Virus record (IMG/VR): IMGVR_UViG_3300025282_000024
Strand: one strand, 5' to 3'
DNA from: a virus
DNA: 64,000 bases
A program made the translations under genes and the position numbers. Position 1 is the first letter of the stretch, and every line of letters begins with the position of its first letter. Of the stretch, positions 3,931 to 13,328 are shown one piece after another. The notes beneath the pieces are model-generated. The model was not told the DNA's origin. It did no database searches and saw only the letters and a program-made list of their open reading frames with translations.

Positions 3931-4191
3931 CTATAAAGAAAAGACAGTAAATAGAAAGATAGACAACAGAGCGGGGAGAAGTATTCTTACAAAAACCGCC
4001 CACCCTAAAAGTCGTTTAGTTTCACTGTTTTTTTTGGCCACAAAGTATAACACAATTAATGTTAGTGCGTTCCAAAAACCAATCTTGCCTATCTTTTCCA
4101 TTTCCACATTTTCCATATTAATCAGTTGATGGATGGCGATAGTGCGGCTGAATAGCCTCTTTGCGTATATCATATTCTTTGAGAGCCACAT
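3931..4191 (-). CDS. Hypothetical membrane protein (true start probably downstream, ~4116)
   Basis: Two hydrophobic segments in the C-terminal 55 aa; N-terminal part overlaps the upstream ORF. Confidence 0.45.
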   Translation of the reverse strand: MWLSKNMIYAKRLFSRTIAIHQLINMENVEMEKIGKIGFWNALTLIVLYFVAKKNSETKRLLGWAVFVRILLPALLSIFLFTVFSL

Positions 4192-4369
4192 CTACAGCAA
4201 AATTGATCAGTGTCTGTTCAATATGTGCGATAGGGCATTTCATGTGCGTTGCCAATGCCCGGACTTTATCCCAATCTTCCCTGTTAATAGCGGCCTGAAT
4301 TTTCTTGACTGGCTGCCGCCTCATATTTTTGAAATACTCTACTAAACTTTTATCTGAATTCTTAAACAT
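4118..4369 (-). CDS. Hypothetical protein
   Basis: ATG 4369 with SD AAGGA; the longer ORF-track start (4480) lies inside tRNA-Leu. Confidence 0.6.
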   Translation of the reverse strand: MFKNSDKSLVEYFKNMRRQPVKKIQAAINREDWDKVRALATHMKCPIAHIEQTLINFAVDVALKEYDIRKEAIQPHYRHPSTD

Positions 4370-4402
4370 ATTTTTTTTCCTTGTATTTAATTTTTTAACT
4401 AA

Positions 4403-4486
4403 TAGCTGAAGAGGGACTCGAACCCTCACGCCCATATGGACAAGGGATTTTAAGTCCCTTGCGTCTACCAGTTCCGCCATTCAGCC
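4403..4486 (-). tRNA. tRNA-Leu(TAA)
   Basis: GGCTGAA/TTCAGCT acceptor, D loop GGAACTGGTAGAC, anticodon arm AGGGA-CTTAAAA-TCCCT, long variable arm, GGTTCGAGTCC T arm; CCA not encoded. Confidence 0.95.
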
Positions 4487-4501
4487 ATTTATCATTAACT
4501 C

Positions 4502-4530
4502 ATCATAAACCATATTTGTTCATTTGTCAA
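4502..4530 (-). promoter_or_regulatory. sigma70 promoter for tRNA-Leu
   Basis: TTGACA-N17-TATGAT. Confidence 0.75.
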
Positions 4531-4540
4531 GAGTTAAAAG

Positions 4541-4580
4541 CACCCCCGGCATGATTCGAACATGCGACCTACGGATTAGA
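4541..4580 (-). pseudogene. Orphan 3' half of a tRNA-Arg(TCT)
   Basis: TCT-AA-TCCGT-AGGTC-GCATG-TTCGAAT-CATGC-CGGGGGT-G: anticodon, variable loop, perfect T arm and acceptor 3' strand; no 5' half adjacent. Confidence 0.8.
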
Positions 4581-4953
4581 GCAGCGCTTTGGCTTTCGCA
4601 TGCTCTTCTCTGTGGCAATTTGCACACAAACACAAACATTTATCTAGTTCTTTTTTTACATTTTCATTAAAAGCTGTTAATCTTGCTTTAGAAATAGCAA
4701 AATCTTTTTTATCCGTGTCCTTATGGTGAAATTCTAACACCCCATAATATTTATTATAACCGCATCGCTCACATTTGCCACCTTTATATTCAACACATTT
4801 TTGTTTAAACTTTCTTTGTCTTTCTACGGTTTGTTGATTAGTACATCTTTTACAATAAGGCGACAAATCATTTCCAGATCGCCTGCGATAAAATTCATCT
4901 TTTGTCTTTGTTTTATCGCACCTTTTGCATAATTTTATTTTATGAATGGGCAT
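4576..4953 (-). CDS. HNH endonuclease with N-terminal zinc finger (free-standing homing-type)
   Basis: CxxC...CxxC, then GGKCERCGY...LEFHH...CLCLCANCHREEH; SD GGAG. Confidence 0.85.
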   Translation of the reverse strand: MPIHKIKLCKRCDKTKTKDEFYRRRSGNDLSPYCKRCTNQQTVERQRKFKQKCVEYKGGKCERCGYNKYYGVLEFHHKDTDKKDFAISKARLTAFNENVKKELDKCLCLCANCHREEHAKAKALL

Positions 4954-4980
4954 TTTGGCATCTCCAACAATATATATTAG

Positions 4981-5052
4981 AACCCCTAGCTGGATTTGAA
5001 CCAGCGTATGACGGTTTAGAAGACCGTTGCCTTTCCACTAGACTATAGGGGC
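4981..5052 (-). tRNA. tRNA-Arg(TCT)
   Basis: GCCCCTA/TAGGGGT acceptor, ACGGT-CTTCTAA-ACCGT anticodon arm, GCTGG-TTCAAAT-CCAGC T arm; CCA not encoded. Confidence 0.9.
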
Positions 5053-5065
5053 TTATCATGTAACA

Positions 5066-5094
5066 ATTATACCTCACTTAGATTTGAATGTCAA
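5066..5094 (-). promoter_or_regulatory. Perfect-consensus sigma70 promoter for tRNA-Arg/HNH
   Basis: TTGACA-N17-TATAAT. Confidence 0.88.
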
Positions 5095-5103
5095 CCTTTT
5101 GTC

Positions 5104-5127
5104 CAAAATAAACAATCGTTTATTTTG
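5104..5127. repeat. Palindrome CAAAATAAAC-N4-GTTTATTTTG upstream of the -35; second copy at 5682-5705
   Basis: Perfect 10-bp inverted repeat; ~35-bp direct repeat with 5671-5708. Confidence 0.75.
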
Positions 5128-5160
5128 CTTAATAAGTTATAACGGCCAAATCGTCAAATG

Positions 5161-5589
5161 TTATCTTGACACTTTTGGATCAGGAACAATAAGAACGACG
5201 GGCTCTTTCGAACTCCACATTGGGCCGACCTTAAATCCAGCGTCCTTGAACTTTTGTGTGATCTCATGCGACATTCTTAACCCTGCGATAGATGCCAGTT
5301 TAGTCATCTCATACTCAGAACGAAATACCTGATATTCGCCCGGAGAATACACCGGATCATGTTCTATGTCAAGTTCAAAATTATCTTTGGTAACATTGGG
5401 GAGATTGTATACAATATCTTCGATCTTCTGAATATTGGGATCTTTGTCTCCTTCAATTGCACCCTGTGTGGCAGCAGCTTGAGCAACTGCTAAAACATCT
5501 TCAAGGTCAGTATCACCATCGCTGTCGATATCTGTATCTGCTTCTTTTACAAACTTACTCCAGTTTTCCATTATAAGTTTATGTTTCAT
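5161..5589 (-). CDS. Acidic hypothetical protein, possible internal head protein
   Basis: MKHKLIMENWSKFVKEA leader, D/E-rich body, CTATTTAA motif just upstream. Confidence 0.65.
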   Translation of the reverse strand: MKHKLIMENWSKFVKEADTDIDSDGDTDLEDVLAVAQAAATQGAIEGDKDPNIQKIEDIVYNLPNVTKDNFELDIEHDPVYSPGEYQVFRSEYEMTKLASIAGLRMSHEITQKFKDAGFKVGPMWSSKEPVVLIVPDPKVSR

Positions 5590-5619
5590 ATATTAAATAG
5601 TCTCCAATAAGAGAAAAGT

Positions 5620-12484: not shown

Positions 12485-13328
12485 GTCTAAAATTATCATT
12501 TTGTACCACAGAACTATTCAATAAGCCATAAATATAAGGTGTATCATAGCTTGTTGAATAAATCCCGTAGCTGACCTTTATTTTATCATACTGTTTCAAA
12601 ATTTTAAGCTGTTCTGAGATATTTTTCATTAAAGTGCCATCAGTTTTTAACATTTCTTCAGGCACTCCATAATAATAACATTTATCTCTGGGGATGTCAA
12701 GATCAAAAAATAATTTTTCTTCCCCTCCTTCATATGAAACTAAACTGAAAGTTGATATCCTAGCAGAATCCAATGTCTCATCAAAAGTGTCAATTTCAGA
12801 CTTAGAATGTTTAAAGACGTTAATCATATGCATGGTAGAAGATATTAATTCGTTCATTTGAGTGTGTATTTCTCGTAAGGGGACGTCCCCAATTATTTTA
12901 GACAACTCAACATTATCAACTAGATAAATTCTTTTAAAAAGCCCTGACCGTGCGTATTCTTGTAATACCCCAAAAATTACATTATTGTTTTTTACTTTTA
13001 GCGCAGGGAGCAAAGAACAATCTGGCCGAGCATACAAAACGCTTATATTACATTTGTGTCTTATCTGTTCCAATATTCGCAGGCTAGCGGCAGATATTTT
13101 TCCACAGCTAGTAATGAACAAGACATCCCCCTTCACATATCTAAAAAATTTTTTAAAGCTTGGACACTTCTTTTCGTATTCTTCTAAAGTTTTAAATTCC
13201 GGAAAATCAAAACAATCCTTTGAACTTTGTAACCCTTTATTGATTTTATATATTTTATATTGAGGGTACTTCGAAAAGCTAGCAGCAATATTACATCCAG
13301 CAGTTCCTAGACCGATGATCGTTTTCAT
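12462..13328 (-). CDS. Divergent tubulin/FtsZ-like (PhuZ/TubZ-type) protein
   Basis: IIGLGTAGCNIA (T1 loop), later LVDN and MNELI elements; GGGTG signature degenerate. Confidence 0.6.
   Translation of the reverse strand: MKTIIGLGTAGCNIAASFSKYPQYKIYKINKGLQSSKDCFDFPEFKTLEEYEKKCPSFKKFFRYVKGDVLFITSCGKISAASLRILEQIRHKCNISVLYARPDCSLLPALKVKNNNVIFGVLQEYARSGLFKRIYLVDNVELSKIIGDVPLREIHTQMNELISSTMHMINVFKHSKSEIDTFDETLDSARISTFSLVSYEGGEEKLFFDLDIPRDKCYYYGVPEEMLKTDGTLMKNISEQLKILKQYDKIKVSYGIYSTSYDTPYIYGLLNSSVVQNDNFRLDKEINL

Follow-up and report, generated by a model that had tools for sequence, protein, structure and literature searches.

An HNH endonuclease gene and a complete tRNA-Arg gene form a cassette within a split tRNA-Arg gene of uncultured marine phages

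Introduction

Homing endonuclease genes usually spare their hosts by residing in self-splicing introns or inteins, or between genes. The gene for MobE, a free-standing HNH homing endonuclease of Aeromonas phage Aeh1, reportedly splits the gene nrdA. Integrase-type elements and prophages target transfer RNA (tRNA) genes, leave a partial tRNA copy behind and keep one working tRNA, and in synthetic cleave-and-rescue or home-and-rescue drives a nuclease that destroys wild-type alleles is inserted in the target gene together with a recoded version of it that cannot be cut. The present study concerns a stretch of viral DNA of 64,000 nucleotides (nt), IMG/VR record IMGVR_UViG_3300025282_000024, hereafter the window, in which a gene for a predicted HNH endonuclease stands between an intact tRNA-Arg(UCU) gene and the 3' half of a second one. 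Comparison with related loci revealed that the intact tRNA gene and the HNH gene belong to one cassette, which in its best preserved copies lies in the anticodon loop of a resident tRNA-Arg(UCU) gene.

Among the endonucleases of phage tRNA regions, SegB of T4 cuts the tRNA genes of segB-less relatives at a T-arm motif and drives the inheritance of the tRNA region (excerpts of PMC2330249). In T6, a unit of tRNA-Tyr and segB is amplified as one segment under defence pressure (excerpts of PMC13096335). The HNH enzymes F-TflI, F-TflII as well as F-TflIV of T5 are cited as located in the tRNA cluster (excerpts of PMC2330249), and HNH genes also accompany bacterial tRNA arrays (PMC8421152). The HNH gene of the window resembles segB of T4 and T6 in being a free-standing endonuclease gene in a phage tRNA array, whereas SegB belongs to the GIY-YIG family, has a relaxed T-arm specificity and is encoded between tRNA genes rather than inside one. 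The excerpts of PMC2330249 and PMC13096335 describe no split target of SegB with a carried replacement of the same type.

Sequences compared

Compared contigs and loci are designated by L-numbers, and the terms type A and type B denote the two kinds of tRNA-Arg(UCU) sequence encountered. Via the helicase, nine related viral contigs were retrieved. Searches with the HNH protein were run on viral and metagenome contigs, and a search with a 5'-half pattern was run to seek the empty site. About 160 homologous HNH genes were fetched, and 129 non-identical loci were used for the count of orphan tRNA pieces. The cultured phages with a homologous HNH gene that were inspected comprised Felix O1, PAK_P2, two Vibrio schizoT4-like phages, VCPH, MS02, ZPAH1 and CRP22.

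Filled and empty alleles of the tRNA-Arg gene

Type A has a length of 75 nt and a long D arm of canonical form, and is found intact, at the same genomic place and without an adjacent HNH gene, in L004-L006, L008 and L009. Type B is 72-73 nt long and differs from type A in the D arm, the variable loop and the T stem. It is represented by the intact gene of the window, stands alone in L007, and in near-identical form accompanies the HNH gene in L012, L092-L096, L098 and L086.

The HNH gene is part of a cassette of about 570-590 bp, consisting of a leader, a promoter, a whole type-B tRNA gene and the free-standing HNH gene, which lies in the anticodon loop of a resident type-A gene, between nt 33 and 39. 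In L012, L093 and L095 the type-A 5' half (to nt 33) is followed by a leader of about 95 nt, the promoter, the type-B tRNA gene, the HNH gene and the type-A 3' half, and in filled copies the acceptor strands of the type-A 5' and 3' pieces are complementary. The first-pass annotation, made from the sequence of the window alone, had proposed as a check to look for an HNH-less allele with a single tRNA-Arg gene. Such an allele was found in L203 and L172, where the type-A gene is uninterrupted, and the flanks of this empty site are 99.3% (left, 272 nt) and 98% (right, 392 nt) identical to those of the filled L012. In L012, 572 nt stand in place of 6 nt at positions 34-39; the tRNA gene and the open reading frame (ORF) take up 451 of these 572 bases, with the promoter besides. 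The insertion splits and kills the resident type-A gene.

The same arrangement was found in at least ten independent metagenome assemblies, with close copies 80-95% identical, and is therefore not an assembly artefact. Cassettes of this degree of identity occur in at least seven flanking contexts, every time within a type-A tRNA-Arg gene. No tyrosine or serine recombinase was found in the insert, in which the tRNA gene and the HNH ORF are the only genes. The earlier proposal of an integrase-free mobile HNH unit that invades tRNA-Arg genes at the anticodon loop is supported. The composition of that unit, supposed to be a replacement tRNA half plus the HNH gene, has to be revised, since the insert carries a promoter and a complete tRNA-Arg(UCU) gene of a different type.

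The HNH stop codon falls together with loop positions 36-38, which blurs the precise point of joining. On the left side, tRNA homology extends to nt 33, or up to nt 39 when a degenerate version of the loop hexamer is included; on the right side it begins from nt 34 in the window, L097 and L098, and L012 and L092-L096 have homologous junctions. Both junctions of L012 show such a degenerate hexamer, the right copy being the last Leu codon of the HNH gene and its stop, and these copies may reflect duplication, microhomology or chance. The last two codons of the HNH gene (Leu, stop) are homologous in copies outside tRNA genes, for example in L099, where the stop abuts an intact tRNA gene. The TAA at positions 36-38 may thus represent a microhomology shared by the cassette end and the loop. 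In the one empty/filled pair, the differences lie in the last 12 nt to the left of the insert and in the first nt to its right, and near-junction substitutions are common to L012, L093, L095 and L193 despite their different outer flanks. The pattern of near-junction differences in this single pair is as expected of a short co-conversion tract, and is suggestive of one.

The contig L193 (IMGVR_UViG_3300025122_000164) carries at 12707-12810 the same split type-A 5' half and near-junction bases. Here a ribosome-binding site comes after the 5' half, then a longer ORF begins, and the record ends 60 nt on. The leader of the L012 cassette resembles a decayed start of this longer ORF.

The locus in the window

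All features of the locus in the window lie on the minus strand. The succession of promoter, intact tRNA-Arg gene, HNH gene and a 3' half that begins at the anticodon, which had been read from the letters of the window, was confirmed in every part. The left part of the cassette (5053..5122), comprising conserved leader and promoter, aligns with L012, L093, L095, L086 and L098 from about 5122. The sigma-70 promoter TTGACA-17-TATAAT (5094..5066, with the -35 hexamer at 5094..5089 and the -10 hexamer at 5071..5066) gave 12 of 12 matches in the promoter scan, and its -10 hexamer ends 13 nt upstream of the type-B tRNA gene. This intact tRNA-Arg(UCU) gene of 72 nt (5052..4981) was detected by ARAGORN, and the Rfam tRNA model gave it 64.1 bits (E = 4e-13), where the gathering score is 29. 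Its anticodon fits the use of AGA, the commonest Arg codon (40%) in the long ORFs of the window, and the carried type-B tRNA is predicted to be functional. A spacer of 27 nt (4954..4980), in which direct reading shows a GGAG ribosome-binding site 9 nt before the ATG, leads to the HNH endonuclease gene (4953..4576), which encodes 125 amino acids and matches phrog_2255, 'HNH endonuclease' (E = 3e-33). Its stop codon TAA (4578..4576) is made of tRNA positions 36-38 of the half that follows, as had been seen at first reading.

The orphan type-A tRNA-Arg(UCU) 3' half (4580..4541, 40 nt, nt 34-73) overlaps the last 5 nt of the ORF, and its tRNA homology stops at position 33/34. It begins with the anticodon TCT and AA (A37 A38), followed by a 5-nt anticodon-stem strand and a 5-nt variable loop, and continues with a perfect T arm whose loop is canonical, then 7 nt of acceptor strand and the discriminator base. 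This half is no chance match, since both strands of the 64-kb window together contain just three instances of a strict T-arm motif, namely in the two tRNA genes and in the orphan, and the orphan is identical to the intact 75-nt type-A 3' halves of related contigs at 34 of 40 positions, versus 27 of 40 for the type B of the window. In the intact type-A gene of L178, the anticodon arm agrees with that of the orphan.

Outside the cassette, the next promoter (4530..4502, 11 of 12 matches) and a tRNA-Leu(UAA) gene (4487..4402, found by ARAGORN and Rfam) are common to the window and to its HNH-less relatives L002 and L003, and a gene for a DnaB-type helicase lies downstream of the tRNA-Leu gene. On the other side of the cassette, ORF142 (5161..5589) matched no family in Pfam, PHROG or NCBIfam. 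A listed ORF of 120 amino acids (4118-4480, minus strand) starts within the tRNA-Leu gene, and its first 27 or so residues are translated tRNA; the true start is probably an internal Met near 4369.

The window is AT-rich, with a G+C content of 39%, and related contigs reach up to 190 kb. Its helicase is at most 40% identical to helicases of cultured phages, the nearest being that of Microcystis phage Mel-JY01, and DNA comparison with cultured phages found no close relative, the matches being confined to tRNA and HNH fragments. The source of the window is an uncultured, large marine phage.

The HNH protein

The window protein is accepted as a predicted HNH nuclease on the basis of its motif and its PHROG match; besides phrog_2255, it matches five further HNH PHROGs. 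Comparison of 19 homologues gave the core motif CxxCGY...FHH...KC..LCANCHREEH, and the residues that are invariant or near-invariant among them (C61, C64, H76, H77, C110, N112, C113, H114 and H118) are all kept in the window, where the gene is intact; they comprise the catalytic His...Asn...His motif and two zinc-binding CxxC pairs. The predicted layout is that of an N-terminal zinc ribbon and a C-terminal HNH core. In an AlphaFold2 model (mean predicted local distance difference test score, pLDDT, of 85.7), the stretch of residues 2-43 resembles the zinc domain found in Hpy99I, a beta-beta-alpha-Me enzyme (Z 6.1, root mean square deviation 1.6 A, 42 residues). The protein has no sequence match in the PDB at E <= 1, and a Foldseek search with the model gave no match at E <= 0.001. 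The gene is free-standing, being an ORF with its own ribosome-binding site outside any Rfam intron; no Rfam intron family was detected in the window or in L012, loose thresholds included.

In L097-L101, a hairpin followed by an A/T-rich box is conserved about 20-60 nt before the HNH start, and is deleted in the 27-nt spacer of the window; it may be a regulatory element for HNH expression. A different HNH-type ORF of 172 amino acids, with a helix-turn-helix-like tail, starts inside or just after a tRNA-Met gene in L004 (4854-5372), so that several endonuclease families colonise the tRNA arrays of this phage group.

Decay of the cassette

The copies of the cassette form a decay series typical of homing endonuclease genes after invasion. 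Both tRNA halves are full in L012, L093 and L095, the 5' half is truncated in the D arm in L092 and L098, and the HNH gene is internally deleted in L086 and L087, down to its last 46 codons. Of 11 close copies, 10 have a well-preserved 3' half, and only 8 nt of it are present in L098. L097 has the same junction of HNH gene and 3' half, but a different tRNA-Arg type upstream.

The closest HNH-less relatives of the window, L002 and L003, are without the cassette and without a working tRNA-Arg(UCU) gene. A dead type-A tRNA-Arg is present in L002 (5281-5330) and likewise in L003: its nt 1-15 run straight into nt 40-76, and no more than 1 nt separates the deletion's 3' end from the position of the window's cassette junction (4575/4574). 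This closeness suggests cassette loss or the faulty repair of a cut, and not an unrelated deletion. L002 differs from the window between 5815 and 4574, and in L002 and L003 a gene for a radical S-adenosylmethionine (SAM) KamA-like protein of 436 amino acids, together with a promoter, occupies the place of ORF142 and the cassette. In the window, the arrival of ORF142 or a linked deletion took away the type-A 5' half, and this copy, having no left arm in a tRNA gene, may no longer home efficiently. A candidate remnant of the type-A 5' half at about 5150..5130 was rejected, as its alignment was unconvincing, and the window stands in the decay series, together with L001/L091, as a copy with no convincing 5' remnant.

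Between 5610 and 2501 of the window, L001 shows 99.9% identity to it, and further upstream the two are unrelated. The divergence at 5610 marks another recombination joint just upstream of ORF142. Upstream of this joint L001 carries a transfer-messenger RNA gene (1815-2117, ARAGORN).

Recurrence in other tRNA genes and phages

Nearly all of the approximately 160 homologous HNH genes are located in tRNA arrays. An orphan T arm within 60 nt after the HNH stop was found in 14 of the 129 loci, at an expectation of 0.0075 per locus derived from the density of orphan T arms elsewhere in the same loci. These 14 loci comprise tRNA-Arg in the window clade and in L066, a 518-kb contig, tRNA-Met in L077, and tRNA-Glu in L078, L081 and L082; further lineages involve tRNA-Pro (L076, and a second copy in L078) and probably tRNA-Val (L076). 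In every lineage, the orphan and the intact tRNA gene that immediately precedes the HNH gene belong to one and the same tRNA type. Eight loci from five lineages (L012, L095, L066, L077, L081, L082, L076 and L078) also have a 5' piece just upstream of the intact tRNA gene, whose acceptor strand pairs perfectly with the orphan. For Arg and Met, the HNH stop falls on tRNA positions 36-38; for the lineages of Pro and Glu, the break lies in the 3' strand of the anticodon stem, or the entire anticodon arm is missing. HNH orthologues associated with one tRNA type are 81-85% identical across genomes, and paralogues within a genome 40-44%. The layout of 5' piece, tRNA gene, HNH gene and 3' piece is a property of the HNH family and not an accident of a single locus.

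Among cultured phages, ORF45 of Felix O1 and gp175 of PAK_P2 are homologous to the HNH protein of the window (44-47% identity), and each gene follows a tRNA-Arg(UCU)-like gene, as does the homologue in Vibrio phage MS02. The tRNA-like genes of Felix O1 and PAK_P2 are unannotated (Felix O1, L207 1404-1482, NC_005282.1 25951-26029; PAK_P2, L208 1109-1183) and stand directly upstream of ORF45 and gp175, respectively. The Rfam tRNA model scored them at 31.7 and 38.7 bits, and ARAGORN was silent on both. At least the Felix O1 gene apparently has an unusual D region and a long variable region.

Orphan T arms with acceptor-like 3' ends also recur in phage tRNA arrays as pieces without D and anticodon arms, at L049 1842 and 4847, L051 4847, L056 1853, L060 2339, and L209 1367 and 1489. 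They share a CAGCAA...AATCTT-like motif before the T arm, and may form a family of tRNA-like small RNAs.

Origin and spread of the cassette

The locus in the window is probably the right-hand part of a homing cassette that targets a tRNA gene and carries a replacement tRNA. In co-infecting relatives, the HNH enzyme would cut or nick type-A alleles not yet invaded, at or close to the anticodon arm, and the break would be repaired from the invaded genome, by which the cassette would be copied in. The two tRNA halves would serve as homology arms, their D-arm and T-arm sequences being conserved across otherwise mosaic genomes. Both the split target and the divergent carried tRNA would escape further cutting, and the carried type-B tRNA would compensate for the lost type-A gene. 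We infer cleavage of type A by the HNH enzyme, resistance of type B, and spread by way of double-strand-break repair. As no terminator was found at the cassette locus, promoter, tRNA, HNH gene and orphan are likely to be transcribed together, and the tRNA would be released by the usual processing enzymes. In the window, the 5' half would have been lost later, as ORF142 replaced the KamA-like gene, its promoter and the 5' half upstream. The suggestion that a swap of tRNA alleles shields the phage against host anticodon nucleases receives no support, since the anticodon loops of types A and B are identical.

Several points weigh against homing. The target of the enzyme, the position of its cut and the immunity of type B are all matters that we infer, and the protein itself has no match in Pfam or NCBIfam at E <= 0.1, while its residues 49-123 align weakly (VIA-align, Z 2.4-3.3) to the HNH domains of Cap5, Gme HNH, McrA and Cas9. 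The left homology arm is short, consisting of 33 nt of tRNA plus any shared upstream DNA, and for the copy in the window, which has no 5' half, homing would need other homology on the left. The first insertion may have arisen separately, by illegitimate or microhomology capture. In six cultured phages inspected, the homologous HNH genes stood next to tRNA genes, and no split tRNA was seen beside them. Finally, since L002 and L003 are without any tRNA-Arg(UCU) gene, the 'rescue' would be helpful rather than essential.

A serious rival, although a rather improbable one in our assessment, holds that the cassette is real but is spread by ordinary recombination at conserved tRNA sequences. The HNH protein would then be no site-specific homing enzyme; it would mark the boundary or act otherwise, for example by cutting the DNA of competitors. 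The tRNA arrays are indeed highly mosaic, as the divergence of L001 upstream of 5610 and the differences of L002 over 5815-4574 illustrate, the tails of the HNH genes are recombinant between cassette subtypes, and nuclease genes are found at exchange boundaries (excerpts of PMC10448857). However, plain recombination between tRNA genes predicts hybrids and not a foreign insert within the anticodon arm, and the same layout recurs across six lineages that represent five types of tRNA, each group of HNH orthologues being bound to a single type.

Much less likely is that complete B and A genes once flanked the HNH gene, and that a deletion took the 5' half of A along with the terminal part of the HNH gene. 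Distant homologues do lie directly before an intact tRNA-Arg gene (L099 and the L014 type) or after one (L100), and their HNH stop is at the homologous protein position. This history is nevertheless contradicted for copies of the L012 type, in which a type-A 5' half lies upstream of the promoter and tRNA B and ends at nt 33, where the 3' piece begins. The empty site with its near-identical flanks, and the matched 5' and 3' pieces in other lineages, speak against it as well.

Slightly less credible than a deletion is the replacement of one tRNA half, as practised by integrative elements, in which a new 3' half arriving with the HNH gene joins the resident 5' half and the old 3' half is displaced. 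The window by itself fits such an event, with its intact tRNA, HNH gene and orphan 3' half and no orphan 5' half, and the 5' half of tRNA B nearly pairs with the orphan. This pairing, with one mismatch in each stem, was confirmed by inspection, but degrades to two mismatches per stem in L012; not being conserved in relatives, it carries no weight and is an expression of general tRNA-Arg likeness. A hybrid origin of the intact tRNA, from an old 5' half and a new 3' half, does not hold: the gene is type B from end to end, it and its own promoter accompany the HNH gene, and type-A 5' halves stand upstream of the promoter in L012, L093 and L095. Moreover, the empty site contains a complete type-A gene and not a type-B 5' half.

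Least probable of all is a functional split or intron-containing tRNA, of which type A would still be made by splicing out the insert or joining the halves in trans, for although group I introns occupy the anticodon loops of bacterial tRNA genes (excerpts of PMC3984707) and the 3' half is well preserved in most close copies, the insert is filled by promoter, tRNA and ORF, the window has no 5' half, the 5' halves of L092 and L098 are truncated, and near-junction bases are mutated.

Comparison with known systems

The HNH genes of T5 (F-TflI, F-TflII, F-TflIV), Felix O1 (ORF44, ORF45 and ORF47) and PAK_P2 (gp175) lie in tRNA arrays, like that of the window. Felix O1 and PAK_P2 differ from the L012-type cassettes in having no flanking halves of a split tRNA at the loci inspected. 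An endonuclease gene inserted in a tRNA gene together with a complete replacement of the same type was not found in the literature searched, which left most subscription journals outside, and the tRNA-carrying cassette is new as a variant of free-standing homing endonuclease genes. For annotation, orphan tRNA halves beside HNH genes are to be regarded as scars of invasion and not as genes.

A broader reading, which is quite possible but put forward only tentatively, takes the phrog_2255 HNH family to have radiated as natural 'home-and-rescue' drives directed at tRNA genes of phages. A given sub-lineage may have as its target the anticodon arm of a single tRNA type (Arg, Met, Glu, Pro or Val) and may carry a divergent, uncuttable tRNA of the same type, sometimes with its own promoter, with the tRNA halves acting as universal homology arms. 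If so, such drives would be a main cause of the turnover of tRNA alleles, of duplicate isoacceptors and of 'pseudo-tRNAs' in phage arrays, and the cassettes would also be weapons between co-infecting phages. The cleavage specificity proposed for the enzyme, if true, would supply a concrete mechanism behind the tRNA fragments, the duplicate isoacceptors and the richness in HNH genes of phage tRNA arrays. It would account for the attractiveness of tRNA genes as targets, these genes offering conserved recognition sequences and homology arms in mosaic genomes, and the family would be a source of small nucleases (about 120 amino acids) with specificities for tRNA genes.

Set against other mobile elements, the cassette differs from MobE of Aeh1 in what becomes of the target, for the two protein pieces of nrdA reportedly still assemble into a working enzyme, whereas the cassette abandons the broken gene and brings a complete copy. 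Integrase-type elements employ a tyrosine or serine recombinase and an identical core, and restore a hybrid tRNA; the cassette has no recombinase and supplies a wholly foreign, presumably working tRNA. Group I introns in the anticodon loops of tRNA genes share the place of insertion, and the damage to the host gene is likewise neutralised, in their case by splicing, but in the cassette by a spare gene, no ribozyme having been detected. To the two usual ways in which homing endonuclease genes spare their hosts, the cassette adds a third, in which the target gene is broken and a presumably working, sequence-divergent spare is supplied. Its logic resembles that of home-and-rescue drives, and given the proposed cleavage specificity it would be a natural counterpart of engineered cleave-and-rescue drives; the latter are built with Cas9 in insects, whereas the cassette is a natural phage element in which cutting and immunity are presumed.

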